NCBI GenBank assembly: GCA_001769125.1
Contig: MEOG01000132.1
Span: 11,628-75,627 of the forward strand
Reading direction: 5' to 3'
Length of the DNA stretch: 64,000 nucleotides
Source of the DNA: Bacteroidetes bacterium GWF2_35_48
Lineage (GTDB): Bacteria > Bacteroidota > Bacteroidia > Bacteroidales > GWF2-35-48
The notes beneath the pieces were generated by a model. It was not told the origin of the DNA, searched no databases, and saw only the letters and a program-made list of their open reading frames with translations. Shown piece by piece: positions 7,676 through 48,620 of this stretch. Within the stretch, counting starts at the first letter, position 1. Every line of letters begins with the position of its first letter. The position numbers and the translations under genes are program-made.

Positions 7676-7924
7676 CACATTGTGAGCAAAAAACATGAGT
7701 TTTCTTGCTGATTAAATAAAAGATTCTTTTAGATTCGCTCTATTCTCTTTAACCACATTTTAACCCCGCTTTCATTTCTTCTTAATGTTGATGTTATATA
7801 TTTGCATGATTCTCTTTTTGCTTTGCCTGAAATTGTTTTTTCAAAACAATTTTTTATTCGAAGTATTACTTTTCGACGGGGCTATTATACTGTAAACGTA
7901 TGATATTTTAACTTTTTCACTTTT

Positions 7925-22002: not shown

Positions 22003-22112
22003 ACCTGAAACCTGCAACTTTCAACAACTTGTCAACCTTAGTGAACCTTAGTGTCCTTAGTGGCTTAGTGGTAAAATATAACATCCAACCTGTAACCCAT
22101 AACCTGCAACAC
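22003..22112. repeat. Third copy of the 'ctgcaac/cttagtg' intergenic unit
   Basis: The core ccttagtgaaccttagtgtccttagtggcttagtggtaaaatataacatccaacctg is nearly identical to 14057-14110. It is flanked by aacctgcaac motifs. Confidence 0.75.
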
Positions 22113-22222: not shown

Positions 22223-23920
22223 ATGGAAATAAAATCAACAGAACCAAAAGAACCCAGAGAAAAAGGGATTCATTTTATTCATCAGATAATAGAAGATGAT
22301 AACAAAACCGGAAAATTCGAACAACGCGTGCATACCCGTTTTCCCCCGGAACCTAATGGTTATCTTCACATCGGGCATGCGAAATCTATATGCCTGAATT
22401 TTGGAACTGCCGCTAAATATGGAGGGCTCACAAATTTACGCTTCGACGATACCAATCCCACAACAGAAGATACCGAATATGTAGATTCTATAAGAGATGA
22501 TATCCGCTGGCTTGGTTTTTCATGGGACGACCGTGAATATTATGCCTCTGATTATTTCGAGCAATTGTATGCATGGGCTGTTGAACTTATTCGAAAAGGA
22601 AAAGCGTATGTTTGTGATATGAGTGCGGAAGAAATGAGCGCGAACCGTGGTAATCCTTCCGTTCCCGGAAAAGAAAGTCCATCGAGAAATCGCAGCGTGA
22701 AAGAGAGTCTGGATTTGTTTGAAGGTATGCGAAAAGGCGAATTTAAAGAAGGTGAAAAAACCCTGCGTGCTAAAATAGATATGGCTTCTCCTAATATGCA
22801 CATGCGCGACCCGGTTATGTATCGAATTATGCACGCACACCATCACCGAACAGGCGACAAATGGTGCATATACCCGATGTACGATTATGCACACGGTCAA
22901 TGCGATTCTATTGAAAAAATAACACACTCGATATGTACGCTTGAATTCGAAGTGCATCGCCCGCTGTACGACTGGTTTGTGAAAGAATTAGGCATCTACG
23001 CTCCGCAGCAGATTGAATTTGCACGCCTCAACCTGAGCTATACGGTTATGAGCAAACGCAAACTTCTGCAATTGGTAAAAGAAAATTATGTCAATGGATG
23101 GGACGATCCACGTATGCCAACTATTTGCGGACTTCGCAGAAGAGGTTACACTCCGGAATCGCTGCGGAATTTTGCTGAAATCATTGGCGTTGCAAAACGC
23201 GATAATGTAATTGATGTTGCATTGCTCGAACATTGTGTACGTGAAGATTTAAACAAAAGGGCTTTTCGTGTTATGGCTGTTTTGAATCCTGTAAAACTTG
23301 TTATAGATAATTATCCGGAAGATACCGTTGAAATGCTTGATGCAATAAATAACCCGGAAGACCCTGAAATGGGAACACGTCAAATACCTTTCTCAAAAGA
23401 AATATATATAGAGAAAGACGATTTCATGGAAAATCCATCCAAAAAATATTACCGTTTATCGCCCGGTGCAGAAGTACGTTTGCGTTATGCCTATTTTGTG
23501 AAATGTACGCATGTTGTAAAAGATTCTGATGGGGAAATTACTGAAATTCATTGCACATTAGATCCCGCTTCACGTGGAGGAAATTCTCCGGATGGCAGAA
23601 AAGTTCAGGGCACCATTCATTGGGTATCTGCAACAAAAGGAGAACAGGCAGAAGTGCGGCTTTATGATCGTCTTTTCGTTAAAGAAAATCCCGATGATGC
23701 AGAAGAGGGAAAAGATTTTAAAGACTATCTGAATGCAGATTCTTTAAAACTTATTACTGCTGTTGTAGAGCCTTATCTGAAAGATGCAGATACAAACATG
23801 AAATACCAGTTTGAACGCATTGGATATTTTTGTTTTGATAAAGATTCATCAACGGAAAAATTAGTTTTCAACAGAACTGTAACACTAAAAGACTCTTGGA
23901 CAAAACAAGCAACAAAATAG
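22223..23920 (+). CDS. glnS: Glutamine--tRNA ligase
   Basis: Class I signatures [12 protein letters not shown] (HIGH) and VMSKRK (KMSKS). FIHQIIEDD and RFPPEPNG are typical of GlnRS. 565 aa. Confidence 0.93.
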
Positions 23921-24070
23921 GTAGTGTTTGCAAGAAAACGCCAACTACTGCGTTACTCTTGTCATGAAAACAGTCATTTACAAAAGTAAACTTCTTGGTT
24001 TTCATGACTTCGAAAGCCTTGTATTTGACGTTTTCTTTATCAAACACATAGTTTTCTTGCGGACACTAGG
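23921..24070 (+). repeat. Palindromic element family 'P-long', copy 2, with a duplicated right end
   Basis: Begins right after the glnS stop. Left arm agtgtttgcaagaaaacgccaa (23923-23944) pairs with ttgacgttttctttatcaaacac (24025-24047). Inner stem is tcatgaaaac/gttttcatga. A second right-end copy tagttttcttgcggacactag lies at 24049-24069. Confidence 0.75.
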
Positions 24071-27926: not shown

Positions 27927-29252
27927 TTACTTTATCGAAATCACATTTATTTCCACCCTGCGGTTTTTTTCCATTTCGTCTTCTTTGTTTGTCGTGGGAT
28001 AAAGCATGTATTTACTCCCAAAGCCAATTGTTGTCATACGAGTTCTTTCAATACCTTTTTCTTTAAGATAAGTATATATTGCTTGTGCGCGTTGTTCCGA
28101 TAATTTTTGTGACCAGCCTGGTCTTTGCGCTTCCGTTTGTTTAAAAGGGTCGTTCGTATGGCCTTCTATTCGTATCACCATCTTTTTATTTTTTTTCATA
28201 AGCTTATAGAGTGCCTTAACCGATGACATAGACTTAGGAAGAAGCCTTGCCTGGTCTCCATGAAAATTTATTCCGTCAAGCGTATATTTTTTACCGCCCT
28301 TTAATTTCGGAAGCACAACTTTGATATTATTTATCTGATAATTGGCTTTTTTCAGCTCCGCTTTATGTATCTCTTTTATTGATATAAAAGAACTGTCTTC
28401 TGTCATTACCAGATTATAATCTTCATTTAAAAAGACAATTGCTGAAAAATCAAATATACCTGCTTCATTGGTTTTTGTACTTGCAATTTCAACTCCGTTT
28501 TTATCTTCCAGTACTACATTAACATCATTCAGTACTTTATTATTTTCATCTTTAACTTCTCCTGTCAATCTGATTTTATTTTCGTAGCCCAATTCAATAG
28601 TATGCCCCTCGCCATTTGGATGCACATTATCTAAAACAAGATAATAGCGTTCTTTTTTCTTTACCTGTATTGATTTTGAAAACGGACTGCCTTTTCCTGC
28701 GCAAGTAAATTCATCTGTTGCTGCATCTGTGAGCCCGGTAATTTCTGATTTCCCCAAACCGGTACGCGTAATATTTGTACGCACAGGAAGTATTTTGCTC
28801 AATGCAACTTGTTCGCAAAAAGTACTGTCTGTACATTTAAAAAGAATGAAGTCGTAATCGTCGTTTTTATTCTCGGGAGTAATTCTGAAAACCAAATTAC
28901 CATCTTCAAAAACATCAAAATAATACCAGGCAGAATTATGTTCTTTTTCAAAAAAAAACATATCTCTTTGCTTTGAAGATTTTATTTCCAATATTTCGCC
29001 ATGCCTATCAGGAGCAACGGTTGGTCCATATTTTACTGAGATTTTTATCGCATCTTTACAATCAGCGGAAATGGGTTTCAGTTTGAGCGTTTTGTTCTGA
29101 GCGCTTGCAAATGGAACAAACAGTATAAGGATTAACAATGTCAGGAAGCCATCCCCCACCTTTTTCCTATCCGTTTTTTTACGCGATAAACTTATTTTCT
29201 CCTGCTTTTTTTTCTCTTTAGATTCCTCTGTGGGAGCGGTAGTATAAAACAT
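27927..29252 (-). CDS. OmpA-family protein (CarboxypepD_reg-like middle domain, OmpA C-terminal domain) with an arfB-tail-derived N-terminus
   Basis: The C-terminus RIEGHTNDP...SEQRAQAIYTYL...NRRVEINVI is an OmpA-like peptidoglycan-binding domain. I start it at the ATG at 29252 (MFYTTAPTEESKEKKKQEKISLSRKKTDRKKVGDGFLTLLILILFVPFASAQ). The longer ORF-track start at 29438 overlaps the upstream gene. A GTG at about 29144 is an alternative start. Confidence 0.75.
   Translation of the reverse strand: MFYTTAPTEESKEKKKQEKISLSRKKTDRKKVGDGFLTLLILILFVPFASAQNKTLKLKPISADCKDAIKISVKYGPTVAPDRHGEILEIKSSKQRDMFFFEKEHNSAWYYFDVFEDGNLVFRITPENKNDDYDFILFKCTDSTFCEQVALSKILPVRTNITRTGLGKSEITGLTDAATDEFTCAGKGSPFSKSIQVKKKERYYLVLDNVHPNGEGHTIELGYENKIRLTGEVKDENNKVLNDVNVVLEDKNGVEIASTKTNEAGIFDFSAIVFLNEDYNLVMTEDSSFISIKEIHKAELKKANYQINNIKVVLPKLKGGKKYTLDGINFHGDQARLLPKSMSSVKALYKLMKKNKKMVIRIEGHTNDPFKQTEAQRPGWSQKLSEQRAQAIYTYLKEKGIERTRMTTIGFGSKYMLYPTTNKEDEMEKNRRVEINVISIK
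29150..29238 (-). repeat. Direct-repeat copy A of the arfB 3' end (~86% identical by eye to 40762-40849)
   Basis: catcccccacctttttcct.tccg..tttttacgcgataa.cttattttctcctgcttttttttctc.ttagatt..tctgt is shared between the two loci. It contains identical stretches of 26 nt and 19 nt. Confidence 0.85.
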
Positions 29253-29292
29253 TAAGCATGTTGGTAATAATATTTGAAAGATATGATAAAAA

Positions 29293-31101
29293 TTATTTTC
29301 CCACAGGATTTTCAACAACAGGCAATTTTTTTGTAACGGCTCTTTTTTCTTTCTGTAAATCGAGTTCTTCAAATAAAATAGCATCCGGCAAAATGAATGA
29401 AGAGGGGATACCTGCCAGTGGCCAGCGATAAGTGTCATAATTTGATTTTTTCCCTTTTATCAACGTATTGTAAACATATTCCTTATTTGAAAATCCTAAT
29501 GTTTTTTTGAATGATTTAACAGTAAGTCCGCTGATTTCTACTGAACGGACAAGCTCCTCTTTACCGTCTTTCACAGATACTCTGTAAACCTGAAATGGCG
29601 TTGAAACTGCATCTTTCTTTTCCTGCCCTTCACCGCCAAAGAAAATCATTTCGTTTTCTTCGGGAATCCCGGCATTCAGATTTTTTATTTTTCTGACAAT
29701 GTATACATACTCCAAATCTTCTTCTTTTGCAGCAGCAAACATTTTTTTCATTAGTTCATCTTTGGTCATACCTTTGGATGTAGTAAAACTAATAACACCG
29801 GGGCCTGTTACAGTAGAAATACCCCCTCCATTAAAAGTAAACCGCTTATGCCCGTTTGACTGTAAAACTTTTGTTGAAGGCACTCTGTCGTTCAATAAAT
29901 TTTTTAAAACGCCATTGTCAACCAATACAAGTTCTTTATCTGGTTTTACACCTTCTGCATCTATTTCATAAGAACCGACAAGTTTAATACCGTTGTATTC
30001 TTTTAAGCCTGGTATTGCTTTAATGGTAAGGTCTCTTGAAACTAATTTTTTATTTAATAAGGGTTCTATGCCATTATCTTTATACATATCGCCAGCCATT
30101 TGAGCAAGTGTAGGATTGCTTAAAATTGGTTTTCTGTTGCCTACCAGACTTGTTGTTCCACTAAAAAATTTCTGTACTAAAATTTCGGCTGCTGCTTCGC
30201 CTTCAAAAAGTACAGGGCCTGAATATGCCTCTGCAATAACGGGAGCTTTGCGTAATGCTGTAATATTATCAGCCATTGTTTTAATGTCTTTTTTCATAAT
30301 TTCCATTGAAGGTAAATCATTCTGTGAAAGAGTATAATAAAAAACATGATCAGCCAAAGGTTCACCATCGGAAGCCTGTGTTTTTACATACGCTTGTAAA
30401 GCGACAATTACAGCCGGGTATTTTACTTCTGACAAATCTGTATTGGTAAAATACACATCGGCCTGATAAACGAAAATATTTACACCTGATGAAAAAATAT
30501 CATTATAAGTTTTCATGATTGCGGATAATTCTTTTGCCGTGTTTTCGAGCTTGGCTTTATCAATTGTAAAAGTGGGTGATTGCAGTATTAATTTTTGCTG
30601 GGGTGCAGTTGAAAAATCAGCAAGGTTTTTTTCTTCATCAGCTAAATTCTGTTGCTGAATGCTGGAAATTTTTGCTTCGTACTTTGCTGTTGCTGTTTTA
30701 TACCTGTGATCGGTAACTAACCATAAAGCCCTTTTTATGGCGTTCACATCATTACCTAACGGAATGCTCATATCGTCACGCTCCCAAAACCAAATTGTAT
30801 TTTCATCAAGATAGTTATCGCAGGTGCGTGTATTATCACCTACTAATACAGTGTTTTCCTGTTTTCTGAATTGTTTTTCTTCGGAAAGAATTACCGAGCC
30901 AAGCGAAGCGTTTATTTGCAAAGCTTTGGCATCGGCTATCGTGTAACTAATAAAAAAGGGTTTCCTGAGTTTTTCTAATTTCAGGTTTTCAATATTTCTT
31001 TTCAGTTCTTCTTTCATTGCTTTTAAAATGACCGGCTCCTGTGCAGTTGCTATGTTTACTAAGAAACATATCAGACTTGCTATTATCAATATTTTTTTCA
31101 T
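29293..31101 (-). CDS. Exported TldD/PmbA-family protein, PmbA-like partner lacking the HExxxH motif (602 aa)
   Basis: Signal peptide MKKILIIASLICFLVNIATAQE. Overall collinearity with the upstream TldD-like paralogue (FISY..AD, ALW..TD..YK.A, GPVLFEGEAAAE, NGHKRF). No metal-binding His motif seen. Confidence 0.7.
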   Translation of the reverse strand: MKKILIIASLICFLVNIATAQEPVILKAMKEELKRNIENLKLEKLRKPFFISYTIADAKALQINASLGSVILSEEKQFRKQENTVLVGDNTRTCDNYLDENTIWFWERDDMSIPLGNDVNAIKRALWLVTDHRYKTATAKYEAKISSIQQQNLADEEKNLADFSTAPQQKLILQSPTFTIDKAKLENTAKELSAIMKTYNDIFSSGVNIFVYQADVYFTNTDLSEVKYPAVIVALQAYVKTQASDGEPLADHVFYYTLSQNDLPSMEIMKKDIKTMADNITALRKAPVIAEAYSGPVLFEGEAAAEILVQKFFSGTTSLVGNRKPILSNPTLAQMAGDMYKDNGIEPLLNKKLVSRDLTIKAIPGLKEYNGIKLVGSYEIDAEGVKPDKELVLVDNGVLKNLLNDRVPSTKVLQSNGHKRFTFNGGGISTVTGPGVISFTTSKGMTKDELMKKMFAAAKEEDLEYVYIVRKIKNLNAGIPEENEMIFFGGEGQEKKDAVSTPFQVYRVSVKDGKEELVRSVEISGLTVKSFKKTLGFSNKEYVYNTLIKGKKSNYDTYRWPLAGIPSSFILPDAILFEELDLQKEKRAVTKKLPVVENPVGK

Positions 31102-31152
31102 TTTATTTCGATTTAAATTATTAGAAAATGTGTTACAAAATTTATTTATTGG

Positions 31153-32844
31153 TTACGGTCTTTTTAATATAGCTGGTCTGTCTTGTTTTTTATTTTTTCG
31201 TTGTGTTTCTATTTGTTTTACAAATACTGAAGGTGAAACGCAGGTCGTGGGAATACCACCCGATTCAGCCCCGCATGTTCCTGTGAAAACATTATAACTG
31301 TCGCCTGCTGCTGCAATTTGTGAAAACATTGCAAGGGGTGTACCCACAAGGTCAACACCACGAACCAGTTCATCTGGGCGACCGTCAACATAAATTCTGT
31401 AAACTTCTGTCGGCATAACATTAAAAGCATTGGGAATAAAACGACCTGTCATAGTAAAGCCCCCTGTCACATTTGCAAACAGGTAGCCGTATTCTTTGCC
31501 CTGTTTTTTTGCTTCCTCCCTTAACATTTTTTTCAGGTCTTCCATTTTATTGGGTTGAGAGGTTTCTATTATAAGGTTTGATTGCCTTGTTACAGGCTGT
31601 TTACCGTGGGCGGCTCTGCCGTGTCCGTTTGAATTAGAAAATTTTTCAATAGGGCAACGTGACATCAAAAAGCCATTCAGAACTCCTTTATTTACAATAC
31701 TTACTTTTTTGCCTTTTATTCCTTCATCATCGAAAGTATATGAACCGTAAAGATCAAAACCTTTATACTGTTTTATAGAGGGGTCGAAAAATACAGTGAA
31801 ATCAGCAGGCAAAACATTTTCTCCGATTTTCTTTTTAAAAGTCTGTGCATCGCTTTCTTTTTTCATACGGTGCCCTTCAACCCTGTGTCCGAATATTTCA
31901 TGGAAAAATACACCGGCAGATTTGGAAGACAATAAAGCAGGACCTGTAAAAGCATCAACTACCGGCGCAACTTTAAGTTTACCCAATTTTTCAACCATTT
32001 CTTTGATGTCTTTCAAAATCATTTCATCATTTGGTAAATCAGAAGGTTTGTTGGCAAAATACGTTTCATATAAAGGAAGATCCATTCCGTCATCAGCCTG
32101 TATGTTTCCGCTGATGTGAAGCCAGGCATATACCCTGTTTTCAGCGATTGATGAACCTTCTGTTGACACATAATATTTTCTTTCGACAACAAAACGAATT
32201 ACAGATTCGCCTTTATAAATATCTGGATTAGTAAGAAAAACAGCCGAATATTTTTTAAGTTTTTCTTCCCATGCCGATTTATCAAATTTTGTTTCATCGT
32301 CTTTTAAAAGGGGTTCAATATTAACCTCTGCTTTTTCTTCGGAAAAATCGAATGATTTATCTTCTGTTTCAACTTTTACAGCAACATTGGCCTGTACTTT
32401 GGCAAGACGATCGGTAGCTTTGCGATACCCGTCATCAGTTGCAGACCACAATATTTGCTTAATACCCTCTGCCTGATTATCTAAAGGAAATTCAACACCG
32501 TCTGACCAGCCTTCCATCCATCCGCTGTTATCGTCGCGCAACTCATGAAAATTATCAAGTTCGCGGCTGCCAGTCCGAACCATTACCGTAAGAAATCGTT
32601 TGTTCTCAACATCCGACAGTATCAAATTATCGAATGATGTTTTAATATTATAGGTCTTTACTTCATCAATCCTGTAACTGATAAAATAAGGTGCGCCGGG
32701 CTGTTTTTTGAATGCTTCAAAATTCCGGGTTAATTCACCTTTCATAATGTCAATAAGTTTGTCCTGCGCATACGCTGTGATTCCGCCCAGAATCCCTGTA
32801 CTCAATCCTATAAAGGTGAGCAATGCTAAAAAAAAATTTCCCAT
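31153..32844 (-). CDS. Exported TldD-like metallopeptidase (563 aa)
   Basis: Signal peptide ending AYAQD. The TldD-type zinc motif is FHEIFGHRVEGHR. The C-terminal blocks GTCGAESGGIP and SPSVFV are typical of the TldD/PmbA fold. Confidence 0.75.
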   Translation of the reverse strand: MGNFFLALLTFIGLSTGILGGITAYAQDKLIDIMKGELTRNFEAFKKQPGAPYFISYRIDEVKTYNIKTSFDNLILSDVENKRFLTVMVRTGSRELDNFHELRDDNSGWMEGWSDGVEFPLDNQAEGIKQILWSATDDGYRKATDRLAKVQANVAVKVETEDKSFDFSEEKAEVNIEPLLKDDETKFDKSAWEEKLKKYSAVFLTNPDIYKGESVIRFVVERKYYVSTEGSSIAENRVYAWLHISGNIQADDGMDLPLYETYFANKPSDLPNDEMILKDIKEMVEKLGKLKVAPVVDAFTGPALLSSKSAGVFFHEIFGHRVEGHRMKKESDAQTFKKKIGENVLPADFTVFFDPSIKQYKGFDLYGSYTFDDEGIKGKKVSIVNKGVLNGFLMSRCPIEKFSNSNGHGRAAHGKQPVTRQSNLIIETSQPNKMEDLKKMLREEAKKQGKEYGYLFANVTGGFTMTGRFIPNAFNVMPTEVYRIYVDGRPDELVRGVDLVGTPLAMFSQIAAAGDSYNVFTGTCGAESGGIPTTCVSPSVFVKQIETQRKNKKQDRPAILKRP

Positions 32845-32943
32845 TTTGCTATTTTTTAGATAAAATTAATTTGCAAATTACTATTTATAATTTAAAAATG
32901 TACTTCCTCCGAAAAGTATTGCATAATTTTTTTCGGAATGGAC

Positions 32944-34026
32944 TCAAAAATAAAACCTTGTTAAAATCCTGACCTGAGAACCAATTGTTGTGTATGGGTC
33001 TTGACTTCCTTTTATTAATTTTTCATTTTCATAAGATGAGCGACCAAAAGAATAAACAAAATAAACAGAAAATTCTGAACCAATGCTGAAATGATTTCCA
33101 ATTGGAAAATACTCCGCTCCTAATACAGGTGAAACTGAAATATTATACCATACATTTTTCAATTCTAATTTTGGAGTATCAGTATAGATAACTGTATTAT
33201 TTGATGTCCCAAAAATTATTCTCGGCCCAAAATAAATATTTGCCTTTCCCTTCTGAATCATAGGAAAAATACCCAAACCAATATTAAAAGCAGATGATTT
33301 ATACTTTGTTGAAGCAGAAGCACTATCACTTGCTGAAACTTTGGCAAATGAAAAATCAAGTTCCATTCTGAAATGTTCATTAAATGAAATAGGCATTAAT
33401 ATATTTTTCATTGGTGAAGTAACTAAACTATGAGATGCCATAATAAAACCTAAATCTAATAATTGAGCACCTATTCCAAAAACTCTCGGTTCAATAGTTG
33501 ATTTTTTTTCATCTGTTATTTCCTTGACCACTGTTTTCAGTGAAGAAATATCTGCTGTTAATTGTTTAATATTTAAGGTAATTTCATTTGTAGATTGCTT
33601 AATGTCGCCTGATGATTCATTACTTTTAAGTTTATTTACAGCATCAATTAAATCTACCTGATATTTTGATTGTTGTTGATTTACAAGTGTAAGTTGTTCC
33701 ATAAACTTCTTGAATGTTTCATTCATTAAAGAATCTTGTTTTATCATTTTCTTTAATAAATCATTACTGTAATTATTTTGTGCTTCTGATTTTTTGTCCA
33801 TATCAAATTTCTTTGACGGGTTATTTTGTATCTGCATGATATCAGACCTTGAAATTGTTTTAGCAATTCCGTTTTTTTCGCTTAAATCTATATACGTTAC
33901 TGTTTCAGGTGTTTCTTTAGTTATAGTTGCCTGAATCACATTCAAGTTATTGAGAATAATAATTGCATCTTGAGAAAAAGAAGCAAAGCTGATACAGACA
34001 AACGTAAAAATTAACAGTGTTTTCAT
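32944..34026 (-). CDS. Exported protein: small N-terminal beta domain, coiled coil, C-terminal outer-membrane beta-barrel-like domain
   Basis: Signal peptide MKTLLIFTFVCISFASFSQD. Central Q/K/E-rich helical region. C-terminal ~170 aa show alternating hydrophobic beta-strand pattern ending in aromatic ..RILTRFYF, typical of an OM barrel terminus. Confidence 0.6.
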   Translation of the reverse strand: MKTLLIFTFVCISFASFSQDAIIILNNLNVIQATITKETPETVTYIDLSEKNGIAKTISRSDIMQIQNNPSKKFDMDKKSEAQNNYSNDLLKKMIKQDSLMNETFKKFMEQLTLVNQQQSKYQVDLIDAVNKLKSNESSGDIKQSTNEITLNIKQLTADISSLKTVVKEITDEKKSTIEPRVFGIGAQLLDLGFIMASHSLVTSPMKNILMPISFNEHFRMELDFSFAKVSASDSASASTKYKSSAFNIGLGIFPMIQKGKANIYFGPRIIFGTSNNTVIYTDTPKLELKNVWYNISVSPVLGAEYFPIGNHFSIGSEFSVYFVYSFGRSSYENEKLIKGSQDPYTTIGSQVRILTRFYF

Positions 34027-34053
34027 TTTATTAAATTTTTAGTTTTATTAGTT

Positions 34054-35343
34054 TTAATTTTTCACACAGCGAACTGAAAAACCCATATTAGAATAACCAT
34101 TACCACTTGAAATTTCAGTGCTGCCTGAAAATAAAATTTTCCATTTATAAGCAGCATCTGACGACCAAAAATACGCATATTCAGTTAAGTCATTAAAGAA
34201 ACCTGAATAATTACGATTACCTCCCGGCAAGGCTGTAAAATTACTACTATTGTCTGCGCCTGTATTTGGATTTGCCCAATGATAATAACCAGATTCTTTC
34301 ATTTTGCCTCCTGCAACAGCTTTTCCTCCAAGATAATCAATTAATGTTTGCCATTCTGTATTTGTCGGGACATGCCAATCGGTCGGACATATATTTTTAA
34401 TATTATTAACAGCATACCAATTATATAAATGACCATAATCAGTAGAAATATTGTTATAATCGCAATAAGCTCCTGTTGACGAAGTACTCCATGCAGTATT
34501 ATCAGTTATGTTTTGAATTGTTGTGTTATCAGCATATTTTGTTGTTTTTAAATTTGCTTTCATCCAACATTGTGATCCAATTGCAACTACAGGATAAGAA
34601 TTTCCGTCAATATCATATACATCGGAAGGGCATGTTACAGAAACTAAAGTCGTAAAACTTCTTTCAGCTCCATATCCTGTTCCTTTAATATTTGTTGCAA
34701 AAGCCTTCACATAATATGTTGTATTTGGTGCTAACCCTGATAAGTTGCTTGAAAAAATTCCTGTTCCTGTACCATTATTTGTTGGACTGTTTGATATACT
34801 CGGGTTCGGATTCGTGCTGTAACATATACCTCGCGCCGTTATTGAAGAATTGCCATCACTCGATATAGTTCCTCCGCTTATTGCAGTAGTAGATGTTATA
34901 TTTGTTATAGCATTTGTTGTAACTGTTGGTAATGAAATAATAGCATTTGTTGAAAAACTTAATTCATTTCCATAACCTGTGCCTGCACTATTTATAGCAT
35001 AAGCACGAACATAATACGTTTTATTTGATTTTAAACCTGAAAGCTTTACTGAAAAAATCCCGATAGTATCTTTGGGATGCACAGATTTCTTTTTTGTTGT
35101 TGTAGGGTTCTGAATTGTATCAAAGCATACACCCCTTTCTGTAATTTTTTTTCCACGGTCAGAAGAAATATTACCTCCGCAAGTTGCAGTATCAGCACCA
35201 ATACTTGTAACCGCCGAAGTTGTAAGAACAGGAACGGGACCGGTTGCCTCGCCATCATCTGTACTTTCTTTTTCACAGCTTACAAAAAATATTAGCTGAA
35301 CGCTGAATAAAATTACTATACAAAAAATGATTTTTGTTTTCAT
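34054..35343 (-). CDS. Lipoprotein with two Fn3/Ig-like repeats and a FISUMP (Fibrobacter succinogenes major paralogous, C-lectin-like) domain
   Basis: Lipobox LIFFVSC. Two ~95-aa repeats (T.A.TSI....A..GG.ISSD......RG.C......P......KTYYV.A.A.N..GTGYG...SF.T). The FISUMP signature is CWMKANLKTTKY...YGHLYNWYAV...CPTDWHVPTNTEWQTL...GGKMKE...NSSNFTALPGGNR...YAYFWSS...GFSVRCVKN. Confidence 0.85.
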   Translation of the reverse strand: MKTKIIFCIVILFSVQLIFFVSCEKESTDDGEATGPVPVLTTSAVTSIGADTATCGGNISSDRGKKITERGVCFDTIQNPTTTKKKSVHPKDTIGIFSVKLSGLKSNKTYYVRAYAINSAGTGYGNELSFSTNAIISLPTVTTNAITNITSTTAISGGTISSDGNSSITARGICYSTNPNPSISNSPTNNGTGTGIFSSNLSGLAPNTTYYVKAFATNIKGTGYGAERSFTTLVSVTCPSDVYDIDGNSYPVVAIGSQCWMKANLKTTKYADNTTIQNITDNTAWSTSSTGAYCDYNNISTDYGHLYNWYAVNNIKNICPTDWHVPTNTEWQTLIDYLGGKAVAGGKMKESGYYHWANPNTGADNSSNFTALPGGNRNYSGFFNDLTEYAYFWSSDAAYKWKILFSGSTEISSGNGYSNMGFSVRCVKN

Positions 35344-35352
35344 AACATTGTA

Positions 35353-37950
35353 TTATTTATTGTTTTTGCCTACAGTAATTTGTTTTATTATAAGCTCTTT
35401 TGCAGTACAAATTTTTAAATTATAATTACCTGTAGCAAGGCTCTGTAAATTTAATTTGTATGTTTTATTCGTAGCAGTATTTACAATATTATCACTAATT
35501 GTTGATTCAATAATTATCTGACCAAGCATATTGTAAACTTCAATTTTTTGTATTTCCATATCTGAACCATTCTCTATAAAAAGTTCTCCTGTGGTAGGAT
35601 TAGGATAAATTTTAAAAAAATCAGCAATTGTATTTTCTTCAATACCTGTTGCCGGAAGTATTGTAAAATAGGTATTACTGAAATCAAAAATTGAATCAAT
35701 TGAGGCACTTAATATTTTAATTTTATAAACCGAGCCGGAAAATAAATCTGTAGGAATATGCCATGAATAAGTTTGATTTGAAATGTTACATTGACCTATT
35801 GATGTTATAAAAGACGTTCCCTGAAATAGTTCTATATTAGCTGTTCCTGAAATATTTGCTGATGTCCAAGTGATGTTAATTGTTGTATCCATTTTTAAAG
35901 TTTCTCCGCCGTTGGGGTAGGTGATGGTAATTAAAGGAACAGTAGAAGTAACATTTATTGGTACTATACTTGACCATGCACCAATATTATCTTGTGATTT
36001 TGCTTCTATTGTATTGCTACCTGACGATAATGTAACAGAACCTGACCAACTTGTTGTACCTGTCGCATCTTGCCAACTTCCACTATTTACACGGAATTGT
36101 ACTAATGATATACTACCGTCAGGGTCATTTGCTGTTCCTGCTACAGAAATATTTTGTGTTGTAAATGATTGTCCGTTATCTGGAGAACTTATACTAATCG
36201 TAGGGATTTGATTTGATGCGGAATAAGTAACATTGATTGAAACAGGGTTTGACCATGCGCCTGTATTGTCTTGTGATTTTGCTTCTATTGTATTGCTACC
36301 TGACGATAATGTAACAGAACCTGACCAACTTGTTGTACCTGTCGCATCTTGCCAACTTCCACTATTTACACGGAATTGTACTAATGATATACTACCGTCA
36401 GGGTCATTTGCTGTTCCTGCTACAGAAATATTTTGTGTTGTAAATGATTGTCCGTTACTTGGAGAACTAATACTAATCGTAGGGATTTGATTTGATGCAG
36501 TAACCGTTAAAGTTGCATCATTGCTTTGGGCTTGATATTCATTGTTACAATTATTGATTTTACAATTGTAACTACCATTGTCACTAGTAGTGAGATTTGT
36601 TATTGTAAATGAGTTACTTGTTGCTGAAGTATTAATTGGTCCTCCTTGTAAAACATTATCTTTAAACCAAAAGTAAATAAATGGCGGTGTACCATTTACA
36701 GAAACGTTAAATACTACTGTACTACCTGAATTCACTGATTGAGTTTGGGGATGTGTAGCGATTGTTACTGCTGTACAAGATGAATTACAAGCAATAATAT
36801 TATTTTTTGTATTAGTTCTAATTTGAGCCAATAAATTATAAAGATTATTACCAGGACAAGTGGTTGATGCCACATCACGATGCCCCATAACTCTTGGTAA
36901 ATTTTGAGAATTTATACTGGCTGAAGTTGTAGGATCAAAACCACGCCAATCAAACCACCATGCTAATAAATCTTCTAATTTTGATAATTGAACTGTTGTT
37001 GAATTTGTAACGTCAGTATTTCCTAAAAAACAAATCCCTATTGAATATGAATTGTAAGAAGTAGCATGTGCCCCTTGAACATCTTGAGTTGTATTACTAG
37101 GATTGTATCTGCCTTGAAAAATATTACCGTACTTGTCTACAAGGTAATTATAACCTATATCAAGCCATCCATTTGTATTAACATGATAATCCCAATAGCT
37201 TCTTACAATAGAATAGCCATCTGTATATGTATCTGGTGAGGCTCCATGATGCATGATTACATGAGTTGGATATATCACAGTTGGGGTATATGTCGGGTTT
37301 TGACAAGCAGTGAAACTCCCACACCAATCACTCCTTGGTATTATAGATGGCTGTGGGCATCCTCTATTTTTATTTGATTCATTTATAATATCTTTGTTTT
37401 CAAGTTTTTCAAAATTATTTCTATCTGAATTATTTGAAATCATGTCAACTAAATCCACTCTAGTTGTATTTATTTTTTCAGGTGTTAATAAAATAATCTC
37501 ACATTCATTGTATAGCTCTTTATCGCTTAAAAAAATTATATTACTCCAGTATAAATTAGTCGGTGTTTCATTTGGTAAAACTTCACCTTTCACTTCCCTC
37601 CAATCATCCCAATCAAAATTATTTTTTTTAGTCCTATATTTTATTTTAAAAGATTCGGGTACAACATTATCATTTTCACATGACCAACCTACTCCGAAGT
37701 AAGAAAAGGGTACTGGTGATTTAATGTAAAATGAATAACTTCCATCTATATTCCTACTACTTTCTATATTATTATCCCAACTTATTATTACAGCAGGATT
37801 ATTCCTTCTTTTACTGTCGTCAATTACCTTTGTTGGGTAGGGTTTTAAATCAGTTTCTTTAAACTTAAAAGAACTTTGCTGCCCCATTACTCTTACCTGC
37901 ATTGCAATTACGACAATGCACAGAAATAAAATCGTAAAAATCTTTTTCAT
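35353..37950 (-). CDS. T9SS-secreted N-acetylmuramoyl-L-alanine amidase (PGRP/amidase_2 type) with an Ig I-set-like domain and duplicated Ig-like modules (865 aa)
   Basis: Signal peptide. Amidase_2 blocks VIMHHGASPD, GWLDIGYNYLVDKYGNIFQGR, GAHATSYNSYSIGICFLGN and MGHRDVASTTCPG (Zn ligands His/His/Cys). The Ig-like block is GS.VVFNVSV.G..PF.YFWFKDN...SDNGSYNCKI. Two 93-aa tandem modules follow. The T9SS C-terminal domain is FKIYPNPTTGELFIEN...GNYNLKI. Confidence 0.85.
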   Translation of the reverse strand: MKKIFTILFLCIVVIAMQVRVMGQQSSFKFKETDLKPYPTKVIDDSKRRNNPAVIISWDNNIESSRNIDGSYSFYIKSPVPFSYFGVGWSCENDNVVPESFKIKYRTKKNNFDWDDWREVKGEVLPNETPTNLYWSNIIFLSDKELYNECEIILLTPEKINTTRVDLVDMISNNSDRNNFEKLENKDIINESNKNRGCPQPSIIPRSDWCGSFTACQNPTYTPTVIYPTHVIMHHGASPDTYTDGYSIVRSYWDYHVNTNGWLDIGYNYLVDKYGNIFQGRYNPSNTTQDVQGAHATSYNSYSIGICFLGNTDVTNSTTVQLSKLEDLLAWWFDWRGFDPTTSASINSQNLPRVMGHRDVASTTCPGNNLYNLLAQIRTNTKNNIIACNSSCTAVTIATHPQTQSVNSGSTVVFNVSVNGTPPFIYFWFKDNVLQGGPINTSATSNSFTITNLTTSDNGSYNCKINNCNNEYQAQSNDATLTVTASNQIPTISISSPSNGQSFTTQNISVAGTANDPDGSISLVQFRVNSGSWQDATGTTSWSGSVTLSSGSNTIEAKSQDNTGAWSNPVSINVTYSASNQIPTISISSPDNGQSFTTQNISVAGTANDPDGSISLVQFRVNSGSWQDATGTTSWSGSVTLSSGSNTIEAKSQDNIGAWSSIVPINVTSTVPLITITYPNGGETLKMDTTINITWTSANISGTANIELFQGTSFITSIGQCNISNQTYSWHIPTDLFSGSVYKIKILSASIDSIFDFSNTYFTILPATGIEENTIADFFKIYPNPTTGELFIENGSDMEIQKIEVYNMLGQIIIESTISDNIVNTATNKTYKLNLQSLATGNYNLKICTAKELIIKQITVGKNNK
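35940..36498 (-). repeat. Near-identical in-frame tandem duplication, 279-bp period, two copies
   Basis: cttgtgattttgcttctattgtattgctacctgacgataatg... occurs at 35991 and 36270 (offset 279). About 225 nt of each copy differ at only ~3 positions by eye. The encoded unit is ASNQIPTISISSP.NGQSFTTQNISVAGTANDPDGSISLVQFRVNSGSWQDATGTTSWSGSVTLSSGSNTIEAKSQDN.GAWS. Confidence 0.9.
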
Positions 37951-38023
37951 AACCTAAATGTGTTTAATTTTTCCCTACTCTTTTTCGCCACGGCGAAGGA
38001 TTTTCGGGGTTGCTCCTATTCAA
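37951..38023 (-). promoter_or_regulatory. Conserved leader cassette, copy 1 (entire tail-fibre/amidase intergenic spacer)
   Basis: The minus strand reads ATAGGAGCAACCCCGAAAATCC[ttcgccgtggcgaa]AAAGAGTAGGGAAAAATTAAACACATTTAGGTTATGAAAAAG. It is homologous to 39374-39440. Copy 1 carries an extra perfect hairpin, ttcgcc-gt-ggcgaa. Confidence 0.6.
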
Positions 38024-39373
38024 TTATTTTCGGATTGTTTCTAATTTACTTATTTTTAGTTCCAACTCCTCTACCTGTTTTTTCAATGCCTCCAGCTCTT
38101 TAATTTTCTTGTTTAATTCTTTAATTGCAGCTAATGCAACGCCTGCAGGATCAATAGTTGAAATGGCTTTGTCATCATTGCCAAGGTTGAACAGATTATA
38201 AAAATCCTGCGACATTGGTCCGATGTGTTTCACACCCGGTTCGCTTTTGTAGTTCCATACAGTGATTGGCAACAGATCAATTTTTGATAATATATCTTTA
38301 TTGCTGACCTCTGTAAAATTTTCTTTCAACAGTTTATCTGAAGCATTTGTCCATACGCCACCATTAGATAAAAAGGCTCCGTTTGTAACATCAATAACCT
38401 TTCCGGTACCTGACTTTGCGATATATATCATTGAATTTGGATTACTGGAATTATTTTGTTGAATCTCTAAAGTTCTCCCCATCCCGTCGTTAGTTATTAT
38501 CATAGTGTTTGAAGAAGCGCCTGTATTGCTTTGTTGTATCTGGAATGGAATTCCACTGCTTCCTGAATGCCAGATTCCCAATCCGTTTGCCCCGCCTGTT
38601 ATATTCATATAAAAACTGGTTCCATTATAGGGTTGCTCCTGCCGTATCCGGCCTACAACATGCAGTTTGTCAGAAGGGCTTGTTGTGCCTATCCCGACAT
38701 AATTCCCATCATCAAAAATTTGTGATGTGCTTATGGAAGTTGAACCGGAAAATTTAGGTATATAATTAGATGTACCGGAACCGGTAATTCCCGCAGAAAA
38801 GGCTTGATTAACGGCATTCGTTATTCTGCCGAATGAATTTACTGTGATTACAGGTACATTTGTAGTGCTGCCATAAGTTCCGGGAGTAACTCCTGTTGTA
38901 GAATTACTGATTGTATCACCGGAAATTGAAATTCCATTACCTGCAACGTATGTTTGTTCTGTTTCCTTCGCATACAAAGCATACGGCACGCTGAGCAGTT
39001 GGCTTGTTCCCATTTCAACATAATTGCTGCCACCTGCTGCATCGAGTTCCACTTTTACAAAATACGACCCGCCTGCCCAGTTGATGCTTGCGAAACTGCC
39101 GCTTACCACAGCACCACCGCCTATGGCAAGGGTTACCAAGCCGAACTGGTTTGTGGTATCGGTATGTGTTTCGCTATATACAAGTGTTCCGGAAACGCTG
39201 CCCTGTAACAGGCTTATACGGAACGATACATGCTGGTTTGCCAGCACATTGCCCGCTGCATTTCGGGCTATCGCTTGGTATCTGAAGCTTTGTGGCGATT
39301 GGGCAAAGATGTTTTGATTAATTAAAAATGATAAAAAAAATATCAGGGCAATTCTTGTAAAAACCTTTTTCAT
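38024..39373 (-). CDS. Tail-fibre-like surface protein with a C-terminal peptidase S74 intramolecular-chaperone domain (449 aa)
   Basis: Signal peptide. Fibre-like Gly/Ser/Thr-rich region with YIPKFSG.....S.IFDDGNYVGIGTTSP. The C-terminus ASDKLLKENFTEVSNKDILSKIDLLPITVWNYKSEPGVKHIGPMSQDFYNLF...IDPAGVALAAIKELNKKIKELE is the S74 autoproteolytic chaperone signature, followed by a coiled coil. Confidence 0.8.
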   Translation of the reverse strand: MKKVFTRIALIFFLSFLINQNIFAQSPQSFRYQAIARNAAGNVLANQHVSFRISLLQGSVSGTLVYSETHTDTTNQFGLVTLAIGGGAVVSGSFASINWAGGSYFVKVELDAAGGSNYVEMGTSQLLSVPYALYAKETEQTYVAGNGISISGDTISNSTTGVTPGTYGSTTNVPVITVNSFGRITNAVNQAFSAGITGSGTSNYIPKFSGSTSISTSQIFDDGNYVGIGTTSPSDKLHVVGRIRQEQPYNGTSFYMNITGGANGLGIWHSGSSGIPFQIQQSNTGASSNTMIITNDGMGRTLEIQQNNSSNPNSMIYIAKSGTGKVIDVTNGAFLSNGGVWTNASDKLLKENFTEVSNKDILSKIDLLPITVWNYKSEPGVKHIGPMSQDFYNLFNLGNDDKAISTIDPAGVALAAIKELNKKIKELEALKKQVEELELKISKLETIRK

Positions 39374-39440
39374 AACCTTAATGTTTTTAATTTCCCCCTA
39401 CTCTTTACAGGATTTTCGGGTTGCTCCTATTATTTTTTTG
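39374..39440 (-). promoter_or_regulatory. Conserved leader cassette, copy 2 (upstream of the tail-fibre-like gene)
   Basis: The minus strand reads ATAGGAGCAACCCGAAAATCCTGTAAAGAGTAGGGGGAAATTAAAAACATTAAGGTTATGAAAAAG. Homology to copy 1 continues ~17 nt into the CDS (ATGAAAAAG.TTTTTAC). Confidence 0.6.
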
Positions 39441-39566
39441 ATGTCTTATTTATTTTTTATCTCACAAAATATCATCTGTTTTTTCATTTGTCTTATATTT
39501 TGTTAAACCCTTGTTATTTCAATATTTGTTTGATCTTGGTATAGCTGATTTAATTTTATAAAAAAA

Positions 39567-39962
39567 TTATTTGCCTGAAAACATTGTCTCTATTTTTAAT
39601 ATAAATTCTGAAAAAAATATTGGTTTTGATATAAACTTTTTTAGTTCTGTATTCTTAAAATCTGATATATAAGATCTATCTACTATACCTATTATCAGAA
39701 GTTCATTATTATATTCACATATTTGTCTTAATGATTCAAGTCCATTTATTTCTTGAATATCAATGTCTATAAAAACCATATTTATTAATTTGTTTTTTTT
39801 ACAGAATTCAACAGAATTTTTACAGTCAGTTTCTAATATCATTTTTGCTTCTGTTTTTTCTAAAATATCTTTTAACAAATAATAATAATTTTCATCTTGC
39901 GTATTTACCAATAAAATTGTTTTGTCTTTCCAGTTAAAATTGTTTTGTCTTTCTTCTTTCAT
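39567..39962 (-). CDS. Stand-alone receiver-domain protein, atypical acidic pocket
   Basis: Beta1 ILLVNTQDEN replaces the usual DD pair. Putative phospho-acceptor in MVFIDIDIQEINGLE. Conserved Lys-Pro in FISKPI. 131 aa, no output domain. Confidence 0.6.
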   Translation of the reverse strand: MKEERQNNFNWKDKTILLVNTQDENYYYLLKDILEKTEAKMILETDCKNSVEFCKKNKLINMVFIDIDIQEINGLESLRQICEYNNELLIIGIVDRSYISDFKNTELKKFISKPIFFSEFILKIETMFSGK

Positions 39963-40029
39963 TACTGTTAAATATTTCTGCCGATTCTCACGACAATTTT
40001 TGCTTGCTTTACTGAAAGATTGGAAAGTC

Positions 40030-40206
40030 CTATTTTATAATTACAGGCGATAAATCAGTATAAACATAACCTGAAATAGTTGTTGTTACATTATAAAATG
40101 TTATAGTAGTAAGTTTTGGGACTCCTATTTCTTTTTTGCATTTGACAGAGAAAAGAATAGCGCATACAATAAGAAGAGACAAAAAGATTGCAGTTATTTT
40201 TTTCAT
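40030..40206 (-). CDS. Small hypothetical membrane/exported protein (59 aa from the ATG)
   Basis: MKKITAIFLSLLIVCAILFSVKCKKE... has a hydrophobic N-terminus. The only support is the ORF and its position upstream of the receiver gene. The ORF track uses an upstream TTG (40221). Confidence 0.3.
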   Translation of the reverse strand: MKKITAIFLSLLIVCAILFSVKCKKEIGVPKLTTITFYNVTTTISGYVYTDLSPVIIK

Positions 40207-40343
40207 AAGTATGTTTTTCAAATTAAACTGTTAATGCAAAAATATAACTTTTAGTTTAATAAAACAAAATATTTAAACCATAAGTTTATTTATAATAACT
40301 TATAGTGTATAGAATAAATTTACTTATTAAATACATTTACACT

Positions 40344-40724
40344 ATGAATTTAAAAGACCTTGGTAAAAAGATAAGAGTAATGCGGGCAGAAAAGAGCCTG
40401 AGTCAGGAAAATGTTGCAGTAGAGTTAGGAATTTCCACAACTGCATATTCAAAAATAGAAAGAGGCGAAACCAATGTTTCTTTTACCCGCCTGATACAGA
40501 TAGCCGATTTTTTTGGTATGGGATTGATAGAATTTTTAGAAAAGCAGGAAGCGCGACCGTATAAAAATAAAAAAGCAAAACAGGATTCTCAAATTACAGC
40601 CAATGAAGACACATCTGGTTACAATAAAAAACAAGATAACAATTTGAAAAAGGAAATGGTGCAATTACGCGAGTTGCTAAAAGCAAAAGAAGAAATTATT
40701 GAACTTCTGAAAAAAAAGAAATAA
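40344..40724 (+). CDS. XRE-family helix-turn-helix transcriptional regulator with a Lys-rich C-terminal helix
   Basis: LGKKIRVMRAEKSLSQENVAVELGISTTAYSKIERGETNVSFTRLIQIADFFGM is a classic HTH_XRE domain. I use the ATG at 40344 (MNLKDLG) rather than the GTG at 40305. Confidence 0.8.
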   Translation: MNLKDLGKKIRVMRAEKSLSQENVAVELGISTTAYSKIERGETNVSFTRLIQIADFFGMGLIEFLEKQEARPYKNKKAKQDSQITANEDTSGYNKKQDNNLKKEMVQLRELLKAKEEIIELLKKKK

Positions 40725-40753
40725 AGCCTATACACACTAATTGGCAATCTCAC

Positions 40754-41155
40754 TCACTCAACATCCCCCACCTTTTTCCTCTCCGCCTTTTTACGCGATA
40801 AGCTTATTTTCTCCTGCTTTTTTTTCTCCTTAGATTTTTCTGTAGGTTTTGTAGGCTTGCGTTTCTTCTTCTTTTTTAAACATTTTTCAATGAGGATGTA
40901 AAATTTTTCTATGCACTTTTTTTTGTTTTTCAGTTGCGTGCGTTCGGTTTGCGAAACGATACGAATAAAGCCTTCATTTGTGATTGTATCGGCAAGTTTC
41001 TCAAGCAAAATATTTTTTTGTTCCTGCGTTAAAATTTCAGAATCCTCCACATGAAAACGAAGTTCTACTTTCGTAGAAACCTTGTTCACGTTTTGTCCGC
41101 CTGCGCCACTGCTACGGGATGCGCTAAATGTAAATTCTGGTAAAAAATCTTTCAT
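40754..41155 (-). CDS. arfB: Alternative ribosome-rescue factor ArfB (peptidyl-tRNA hydrolase, YaeJ family)
   Basis: GGQ motif in SGAGGQNVNKVSTKVELRF, ~133 aa, with a Lys/Arg-rich C-terminal tail. Confidence 0.9.
   Translation of the reverse strand: MKDFLPEFTFSASRSSGAGGQNVNKVSTKVELRFHVEDSEILTQEQKNILLEKLADTITNEGFIRIVSQTERTQLKNKKKCIEKFYILIEKCLKKKKKRKPTKPTEKSKEKKKQEKISLSRKKAERKKVGDVE
40762..40849 (-). repeat. Direct-repeat copy B (the native arfB 3' end encoding the basic tail)
   Basis: See 29150-29238. It encodes PTEKSKEKKKQEKISLSRKKAERKKVGDVE*, versus PTEESKEKKKQEKISLSRKKTDRKKVGDG.. in copy A. Confidence 0.85.
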
Positions 41156-46062: not shown

Positions 46063-46968
46063 ATGATTAGGCCACCTTATTTAAAAAGAAGAGACACAAT
46101 AGGAATTGTTTCAACAGCAAGAAAAGTTACAGAGGCAGAACTTGCCCCGGCAATTAAGAAATTTCAGGAATGGGGACTAAAGGTTGCCATTGGTAAGAAT
46201 CTTTTTAATGAATACAATCAGTTTGCCGGTACCGACGAAGAAAGGGCAGAAGACTTTCAGGCAATGCTCGACGATCCGAATATCAAAGCTATTGTTTGCG
46301 CACGTGGCGGATACGGCACGATTCGCGTCATGGAAGAACTCAGCTTTTTTAAATTTAAAAAAGATTCCAAATGGATTGTTGGCTATAGCGACATCACAGT
46401 GCTGCACTCCTATATGCAAAAACATTTTTCATGCGAAACGATTCACGCTACCATGCCTCTGAATTTCCCGGAAGATGGCTCTGATAATGAATCTACCGTA
46501 TCGCTGAAAGCTGCTTTGTTCGGAGAACTTCCCGTGCAAAATGCAGCACCTCATGAATTTAACCGAACAGGCGAAACAGGAGGTATTCTTACAGGAGGAA
46601 ATCTGTCTTTAATTTCTAGCTTGAGAGGAACTTATCTGGAAGCGGAAATGAATGGCAGAATTTTGTTCATTGAAGATGTTGATGAATATTTGTATCATAT
46701 TGACCGTATGATGATGAACCTTAAAACCAGCGGTATTCTTGGTGGTTTAAAAGGTATGATTGTTGGTGGTTTTTCAGATATGAAAGACAATACGGTTCCT
46801 TTTGGAAAAACAGCTTATGAAATTATTAAAGACGCTGTTGATGATTTTGATTTTCCTGTTTGTTTTGGTTTTGAAGCCGGACACCTGCCTGTAAATAAAG
46901 CAATGTATATGGGAAGACCTGTAAAGTTGACTATTACAGACGAAGGAGTTGAATTGCGATTTTCGTAA
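46063..46968 (+). CDS. LD-carboxypeptidase (peptidase S66, LdcA/MccF-like)
   Basis: FAGTDEERAEDFQAMLDDPNIKAIVCARGGYG, nucleophile context VGYSDITVLH, and C-terminal FGFEAGH catalytic His block. Confidence 0.85.
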   Translation: MIRPPYLKRRDTIGIVSTARKVTEAELAPAIKKFQEWGLKVAIGKNLFNEYNQFAGTDEERAEDFQAMLDDPNIKAIVCARGGYGTIRVMEELSFFKFKKDSKWIVGYSDITVLHSYMQKHFSCETIHATMPLNFPEDGSDNESTVSLKAALFGELPVQNAAPHEFNRTGETGGILTGGNLSLISSLRGTYLEAEMNGRILFIEDVDEYLYHIDRMMMNLKTSGILGGLKGMIVGGFSDMKDNTVPFGKTAYEIIKDAVDDFDFPVCFGFEAGHLPVNKAMYMGRPVKLTITDEGVELRFS

Positions 46969-47135
46969 TTAGTGCTTGCAAGAAAACGTCAATTTCAACG
47001 TTACGCTCGACCTGAAAAGTAGTCATGTACATTAGTACATTAGTACACTCCTAATTTTCAGGTCTTCGCAAGCATTTCGGCAAGCTCAATGTATCACCTT
47101 GAACTTGACATTTTCTTATCAAGCACTGACACTAA
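46969..47135 (+). repeat. Palindromic element family 'P-long', copy 3
   Basis: Begins immediately after the stop codon. Left arm ttagtgcttgcaagaaaacgtcaa pairs with ttgacattttcttatcaagcact(gacactaa). Inner stem is acctgaaaa/ttttcaggt. The central loop contains gtacattagtacattagtacac. Confidence 0.75.
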
Positions 47136-47170
47136 TTATAAAAGACAGCTTTTTGCTCTTATAACCTAAG

Positions 47171-48500: not shown

Positions 48501-48620
48501 GGCTGCAGGTTACAAGTTGCAAGTTGCAGGTTTAACCGTAGACTGAGCGCCTGCCTGTCCGCCTGCCTGCCGGCGAGGCAGGGTAGGCAGGGAGTCGAAG
48601 TCAAGGTTGCAGGTTGCAAT
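48501..48620. repeat. Inverted copy of the GC-rich hairpin unit, flanked by gttgcaggt-type motifs
   Basis: The reverse complement reads attgcaacctgcaaccttgacttcgactccctgcctacc[ctgcctcgccggcaggcaggc]ggacaggcaggcgctcagtctacggttaaacctgcaac. This equals 13858-13918 plus a ~21-nt insertion. Confidence 0.8.

Follow-up and report, generated by a model that had tools for sequence, protein, structure and literature searches.

When the 3′ end of a gene is repeated in direct orientation, the copies are routinely taken as the attachment (att) sites of genomic islands, and in integrative elements a tyrosine or serine recombinase usually adjoins one of the two sites. When integration is of the e14/icd type, the native end of the gene is displaced, stop codon included, and becomes the distal copy. 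The e14 prophage of Escherichia coli K-12, after which we name this type, is flanked by icd and by the C-terminal pseudogene fragment icdC (PMC13626634). Gene fragments can also become parts of other genes, and examples of chimeric genes that arose by partial duplication or by recombination of paralogous fragments are given in the same paper (PMC13626634). A long addition to the start of a protein is known from autotransporters and two-partner secretion proteins, in which the extended signal peptide region (ESPR) precedes a classical signal peptide with n-, h- and c-regions and is removed together with it (PMC2805444). Here we describe a locus that shares traits with each of these systems. It lies in a stretch of 64,000 nucleotides (nt; hereafter the window) from Bacteroidetes bacterium GWF2_35_48 (GenBank assembly GCA_001769125.1, contig MEOG01000132.1, positions 11,628 to 75,627 of the forward strand), in which the 3′ end of arfB (copy B) occurs a second time (copy A) at the predicted start of a gene for an OmpA-family protein. 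On balance, we consider it probable that copy A results from a non-mobile, lineage-specific duplication of the arfB tail (∼30 codons) and was captured in frame as the chimeric start of the OmpA-family gene.

Results

The 3′ end of arfB occurs twice

A sequence-only reading of the window had pointed to direct repeats of about 86% identity, with identical cores of 26 and 19 nt, and had placed copy A ∼11.5 kb from copy B on the same strand. Repeat finding in the 64-kb window recovered the same pair, 85 nt long and 11612 nt apart from start to start (coordinates of all features are given in Table 1). In our recount the copies were identical at 77/85 positions (90.6%), at 77/89 (86.5%) over the span of the earlier reading and at 82/97 when the weaker edge to 29246 was added, and both cores were indeed identical (29191-29216 and 40803-40828 for the 26-nt core, 29150-29168 and 40762-40780 for the 19-nt core). 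The search for further copies of the 26-nt core that the same reading had proposed was run within the window: a degenerate-codon pattern of the repeat and the 26-mer (≤3 mismatches) each matched only two sites, copies A and B, while 0.00 matches were expected by chance from shuffled sequences. In metagenome, genome and viral collections, which apparently lack the source species, the degenerate-codon pattern had no match. Of the eight differences between the copies, six were in the third position of a codon, a bias with P = 0.02 when compared with an even spread and 0.07 on the assumption that copy A is neutral. The two copies are real paralogues. We also tried the three amino-acid differences between them as a marker of the 'native' copy and dropped it, as both states are present among other ArfB tails.

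Could the repeat be a product of assembly? We retrieved 20 contigs of the species (10 per border) from 16 sample or assembly accessions; they came from independent assemblies and comprised IDBA-type scaffolds, k141 MEGAHIT contigs, and contigs of metagenome-assembled genomes (MAGs) from the Joint Genome Institute (JGI) and NCBI. The copy at each border was 100% identical in its 10 contigs, the gene order was unchanged in all 20, and both copies were spanned by one gap-free 19-kb JGI contig and by one 132-kb scaffold. Because independent assemblies agree and single contigs span both copies, the repeat pair is not an assembly artefact; it is a real, fixed duplication scar. Neither an empty site nor any other junction was present in the 20 contigs.

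Copy B had been read as the native 3′ end of arfB, and the protein alignments agree. The 133-amino-acid (aa) product aligned end to end with 13 ArfBs of 131-143 aa, its basic tail matching theirs residue for residue, and one relative in this cluster carries the name ArfB in its source record. The RF-1 domain (PF00472 at 2.2e-18), the GGQ motif and the family-typical basic tail thus mark the gene as arfB. After copy B, only VE and the stop codon follow (40754-40761); on its other side, weaker similarity to copy A reaches ∼40858. ArfB homologues on viral contigs were considered as a hint of arfB-adjacent prophages and set aside: they were ≤40% identical over most of the protein, and most were phage-encoded RF-1-like genes or came from high-GC hosts.

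Copy A forms the predicted start of an OmpA-family gene

Copy A contains no stop codon. Its 3′ edge is sharp (at GGGGATG), with the similarity stopping two codons short of the arfB stop. In both directions the arfB frame of copy A stays open, and downstream it continues without a stop into the signal-peptide core of the OmpA-family protein. The ATG of this gene (29250-29252) lies 4 nt upstream of the arfB similarity and 40 nt past the stop of the upstream TldD-like gene. Residues 1-34 of the protein form an N-terminal extension, of which residues 7-34 lie within the 85-nt arfB-tail copy, and homology to the family begins at residue ∼36. The call from this ATG was found in 8/10 retrieved assemblies (of the remaining two, one had a 503-aa call and one had no call), and an exact look-up of a 501-aa gene model returned no record. 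The C-terminal domain of OmpA was detected (PF00691 at 1.9e-15) and, judged by inspection, the h-region and the ASA↓Q motif (the arrow marks cleavage) align with the signal peptides of homologues. With this domain and a predicted Sec signal peptide, the protein appears to be an exported member of the OmpA family. As far as the sequence and the gene calls can tell, the arfB-tail fragment is the predicted 5′ end of the OmpA-family gene, translated or at minimum translation-initiating. Since copy A is the 5′ end of a gene, it is not a free-standing intergenic (att) scar.

We then compared the protein with its homologues. A search of 5.8 billion proteins found 873 of them, and the 119 listed were mostly 400-425 aa long, had short MK-type signal peptides and aligned from query residue ∼36. 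The 34-residue extension was present in none of these 119 listed homologues (873 found), which indicates that it is a lineage-specific, arfB-derived addition. A Pfam scan of the open reading frame (ORF) including the extension (E ≤ 0.01) detected no N-terminal family over residues 1-34, and the other exported proteins encoded between the copies all have ordinary short n-regions. One OmpA-family homologue, P0059 (41% identical), has the N-terminus MMSKISLARFQTLMVFLTLL, in which KISLxR and FLTLL are common with the arfB-derived extension and the h-region. This resemblance is probably due to chance, but a native KISL-like n-region could have been a source of microhomology for the capture.

The surroundings of copy A were also scanned for transcription signals. 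No Bacteroidota -7 motif was found within 200 nt upstream of the OmpA-family or the TldD-like genes in a scan that is weakly informative, and a sigma-70 promoter and terminator scan, whose sigma-70 model is not applicable to Bacteroidota, gave results at the level of shuffled sequence. Together, the 40- and 51-nt gaps and the missing -7 motif weakly suggest a position of copy A within a transcription unit and not at the edge of an island.

Table 1. Positions of the two arfB-tail copies and of the associated features in the window
Feature	Position	Strand	Description
OmpA-family gene	27927..29252	-	441 aa as called by gene finders in other assemblies
Signal-peptide h-region and ASA cleavage motif of the OmpA-family protein	29100..29150	-	GFLTLLILILFVPFASA↓QNK; by inspection
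Copy A	29150..29234	-	Paralogous arfB-tail copy, PTEESKEKKKQEKISLSRKKTDRKKVGD; weaker similarity to ∼29246
N-terminal extension	29151..29252	-	34 codons, MFYTTAPTEESKEKKKQEKISLSRKKTDRKKVGD; 11 K/R, 6 D/E
Weak arfB similarity upstream of copy A	29260..29299	-	23/40, same register, invariant ArfB FY in frame
Interval between copies	29293..40724		11.4 kb, no recombinase
arfB	40754..41155	-	133 aa, RF-1 domain, GGQ motif, basic C-terminal tail; intact
Copy B	40762..40846	-	Native arfB 3′ end, ∼28 last codons, encodes ...PTEKSKEKKKQEKISLSRKKAERKKVGD

The interval between the copies carries no mobility genes

What would recombination between the two copies produce? When we modelled a crossover in the 26-nt core, the block between the copies was deleted and a single 538-aa ArfB::OmpA-family ORF remained, as the sequence-only reading had anticipated when it warned of an in-frame fusion. 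Such a crossover leaves a fusion without a free ArfB tail, which indicates that the copies are not a working att pair.

The genes of the block are, in order, a TldD/PmbA-like pair and those for a 360-aa protein, a FISUMP lipoprotein, a protein with Amidase_2, Big_7 and a type IX secretion system (T9SS) tail, a Peptidase_S74 protein, a receiver, a small exported ORF and an XRE regulator; Pfam confirmed the gene content described earlier. The absence of an integrase or excisionase, also reported before, held in Pfam and PHROGs scans of all block proteins, which found no recombinase, excisionase, transposase, or replication or transfer function, and it can be extended outwards, as precomputed Pfam annotation of the genes ≤10 kb on either side of the block contained no recombinase. 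Intergenic gaps within the block are ≤193 nt and thus leave no room for a degraded integrase. A tRNA and transfer-messenger RNA (tmRNA) search of the window found none. In PHROGs, the XRE, S74 and amidase proteins matched phage families (repressor-like, tail-fibre-like and endolysin-like, respectively). The flanks contain metG, an S66 peptidase gene and a methyltransferase gene on one side and miaB, an MBOAT protein gene and glnS on the other. The earlier statement that the repeats have core genes outside them is correct for the arfB side only; at the opposite border, the gene reached first is that of the exported OmpA-family protein, which starts with copy A.

Is the block set apart from its surroundings by composition? 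GC content did not distinguish it. The tetranucleotide distance at 29-33 kb and 37-41 kb equalled that of the flanks, and only 33-39 kb deviated mildly (z about 1.9), in part due to tandem repeats. GC content at third codon positions (GC3) was 0.15-0.19 in four of eight block genes, namely those for the 360-aa protein, the FISUMP lipoprotein and the T9SS amidase (32944-37950) and for the receiver (39567-39962), and thus below that of every one of the 30 window genes outside the block (0.23-0.39). It was flank-like in the TldD/PmbA pair, the S74 gene (0.36) and the XRE gene. This suggests that the four low-GC3 genes were acquired separately or belong to a distinct expression class. The block is compositionally mosaic, and no compositional change coincides with the repeats. 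The comparison of 29.2-40.8 kb with its flanks, which had been put forward as a check on the island, therefore went against it: the borders match the flanks and only the middle genes deviate.

Ancestry was examined for one border gene of the block, the XRE gene, which ends 29 nt from arfB and has only 12 database homologues. The best of these (59%) is in GCA_016212695.1, a MAG that also holds the nearest ArfB (66%), and in the best two homologue contexts the XRE gene lies among housekeeping genes (der, hemA, uvrA) with no mobile-element genes nearby. The presence of the nearest XRE and the nearest ArfB in one MAG and in a housekeeping context suggests vertical descent of XRE. For the OmpA-family protein, the nearest relative in the collections was 55% identical. 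No synteny with the window was shared at the 3 closest OmpA-family, the 2 closest long-contig ArfB and the 2 closest XRE loci (tblastn with 19 window proteins), and a scan of the genome collection with ArfB peptide patterns found no relative. None of the tests run yielded independent evidence for reading the block as a mobile island.

Several features of individual block genes were recorded along the way. The TldD/PmbA-like proteins (602 and 563 aa; 29293-32844, minus strand) have N-terminal signal peptides and match the C-terminal PmbA_TldD domain only, so that the pair is predicted to be exported, unlike the cytoplasmic pair of E. coli. The amidase gene (35353..37950, minus strand) contains 279-nt tandem units at 35946-36498, 95% identical, that encode Big_7 Ig-like domains. 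In another assembly of the same species the amidase protein is 772 aa long compared to 865 aa here, which corresponds to one unit fewer, and several scaffolds have N gaps or contig ends inside this gene. The Rfam DUF805b RNA motif was found above the gathering score upstream of the S74 gene (39395-39429, minus strand, 39.2 bits) and below it, with an 11-nt insert, upstream of the T9SS amidase gene (37972-38018, minus strand, 25.3 bits). Both matches lie ∼20 nt upstream of the ATG of the adjacent surface-protein gene, and a 50-nt repeat of 90% identity (37934-37983 and 39357-39406) covers the 3′ part of DUF805b and the first 6 codons of the S74 and amidase genes.

Origin of copy A

We propose that copy A arose in one local copy-and-insert event, a templated insertion or a short segmental duplication, whose source would have been the arfB tail on the same strand, at a distance of 11.6 kb, and whose target would have been the first codons of the OmpA-family gene. 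The protein would then be made with a long n-region, to which the net-positive charge of the extension would be suited, and this n-region would be cut off with the signal peptide at ASA↓Q. As the fragment precedes the cleavage site, export would strip off the extension and leave the mature protein as it was before. So long as it kept the frame and contained no stop, the insertion would thus have been nearly neutral, and for this reason tolerated. A duplication is also the most economical origin, since the island route needs, besides an integration, at least three extra events: mobility genes have to disappear, a deletion has to preserve the frame and a usable ATG has to be at hand. The sequence-only reading had rated decayed integration and segmental duplication as equally possible; our analysis favours the short duplication. 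Several points weigh against it. The start of the OmpA-family gene rests on gene calls; a GTG inside the repeat gives a protein of family-typical length, but with an acidic n-region (MGD...). Direct gene-3′-end repeats around ∼11 kb of surface- and phage-flavoured genes resemble a decayed integrative element, four block genes have a GC3 below that of every flank gene, and the differences between the copies are mainly at third positions (6/8), as in element-borne gene ends such as e14/icd. Finally, all relatives in the collections are too distant to reveal the ancestral state, so that the origin is argued from parsimony only.

These last points lead to an alternative that we regard as possible but unlikely, an old, decayed integration of the e14/icd type. 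In this scenario the element would have brought its own arfB 3′ end (now copy B), copy A would be the displaced native end, the recombinase would have been lost, and the in-frame fusion would stem from a later deletion that took out the stop of arfB, the spacer and the initial codons of the OmpA-family gene. Besides the third-position bias and the atypical GC3 of some block genes, it can draw on direct repeats at the 3′ end of a conserved gene, on a reconstructed attP that would lie between the convergent ends of the TldD-like and XRE genes, on the phage-family matches of the XRE, S74 and amidase proteins and on the precedent of e14 with icd and the icdC fragment (PMC13626634). Of the island footprint seen in the sequence-only reading, one part stands: each border carries the 3′ end of the target gene, in direct orientation. 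The rest of what such an integration leaves behind is missing: there is no recombinase, integrase or excisionase, and the short gaps leave no space for a remnant; copy A, the distal copy, has neither the stop expected of a displaced end nor native downstream DNA; excision would not restore arfB; and the block is mosaic, with flank-like borders and no compositional change at the repeats. In addition, the XRE gene appears to be vertically inherited, the 20 retrieved contigs contain no empty site or polymorphism, and a literature search for arfB (yaeJ) as an integration site or target found no relevant report.

We also considered, as a near variant of the favoured origin, whether copy A could be what is left of a second, once complete arfB (or of a fragment of at least 150 nt) between the TldD-like and OmpA-family genes, whose 5′ part was lost or decayed while the last ∼30 codons survived as the translated start of the OmpA-family gene. 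The weak arfB similarity upstream of copy A, with FY in frame, fits this idea, as its 23/40 match was exceeded by 0/90 local shifts (≤45 nt each way), and so do the two tiers of similarity, ∼55% upstream of the ATG versus 91% downstream, which selection on the translated part would give. However, the upstream match is marginal and its window was chosen post hoc (p = 0.02 over 54 nt in a mononucleotide shuffle), the upstream region was not among the top matches of a protein-profile test, and synonymous positions of the 85-nt copy show nothing close to saturation, a misfit with an old duplication unless gene conversion intervened. We therefore judge this origin to be improbable. Similar, and slightly lower, credence goes to two more far-reaching ideas taken together: that the arfB tail was exapted as a selectively kept leader of the OmpA-family protein, or that arfB is an unrecognised integration hotspot for recombinase-less Bacteroidota islands. 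If exapted, the basic, ribosome-binding arfB tail might act as an extended n-region of the ESPR kind, for instance, and so modulate the initiation of translation, targeting or export. Least probable by far is a functional nucleic-acid element that is kept twice, be it an RNA structure, a regulator-binding site or an antisense target. High identity of a short segment at two loci, with exact 26- and 19-nt cores, would be expected of such an element. Nevertheless, the RNA reading was rejected because the sense-strand folds were no better than those of shuffled sequences (z = 0.07 and -0.68) and differed between the copies, and neither copy had an Rfam match at E ≤ 1; only the plus strand of copy B folded well (z = -4.2), and this fold was absent from copy A. 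Moreover, the window contained just the two copies, the viral, metagenome and genome collections had none, and the substitutions follow a codon pattern. Thus, a short in-frame duplication of the arfB tail remains the origin that we favour for copy A.

Other repeats in the window

The window contains further repeats that are separate from the arfB-tail pair. An intergenic element of ∼140-170 nt occurs in three copies (7550-7690, 23921-24062 and 46969-47141, plus strand), each of which begins at or just past the stop of a plus-strand ORF (6084..7553, 22223..23920 and 46063..46968, respectively). A single long, imperfect hairpin with 45 pairs is the consensus fold of the three copies, and compensatory changes are seen at 11 of these pairs. 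No Rfam family matched the element at the gathering score, and it may be similar to repetitive extragenic palindromic (REP) sequences or miniature inverted-repeat transposable elements (MITEs), or terminator-like. More dispersed intergenic repeats of this AT-rich genome are a GC-rich inverted pair of 46 nt (13882-13927 and 48516-48561, 93% complementary, 34.6 kb apart) and a 102-nt direct-repeat family with three copies (13911-14131 and 22009-22110). Within coding sequence, 63-nt (21-codon) tandem repeats at 18525-18713 and 20990-21115 are common to two adjacent large genes (17100..19532 and 19538..21982, plus strand), which look like paralogous genes for coiled-coil-type repeat proteins.

Discussion

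The locus makes no long-standing question testable. Its use lies rather in a caution for island calling, as automatic callers would probably over-interpret a repeat whose second copy is the start of a coding sequence, and in a small case study of how a short in-frame duplication may be tolerated in a signal peptide that is later cleaved off. Should the extension prove to be translated and conserved in relatives found in the future, the locus would provide a clear-cut case from nature of a signal peptide lengthened by gene-fragment capture.

How does the locus compare with the systems described so far? As at e14/icd, 11-15 kb of DNA is enclosed by two directly oriented copies of a gene 3′ end, most differences between the copies are silent or conservative, and a crossover between them creates a chimeric gene (PMC13626634). 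The two cases part in that e14 has an integrase and excises, icdC keeps the gene end and excision restores icd, whereas here there is no recombinase and no distal stop. With islands and prophages at the 3′ ends of tRNA and tmRNA genes the locus shares direct repeats of the end of a conserved translation-related gene that bracket accessory genes. It differs from them because the repeat is protein-coding, its second copy lies within the coding start of another gene, no integrase adjoins it and the window has no tRNA or tmRNA gene.

The comparison can also be made from the side of the OmpA-family protein. Like the ESPR, the arfB-derived residues are a long N-terminal extension ahead of an otherwise classical signal peptide of an outer-membrane protein, but this likeness is one of working only: the ESPR is a conserved family-wide motif, whereas the extension here is confined to one lineage, derives from arfB and has no Pfam match. 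As in the chimeric genes of PMC13626634, part of a coding sequence has been contributed by a fragment of a different gene. Those chimeras join homologous genes, while in the window an unrelated tail has become a signal-peptide extension and the mature protein is probably unchanged. The locus is thus not a new kind of system; it is a new instance of known phenomena, in which gene-fragment duplication, a chimeric gene start and att-like repeats come together.

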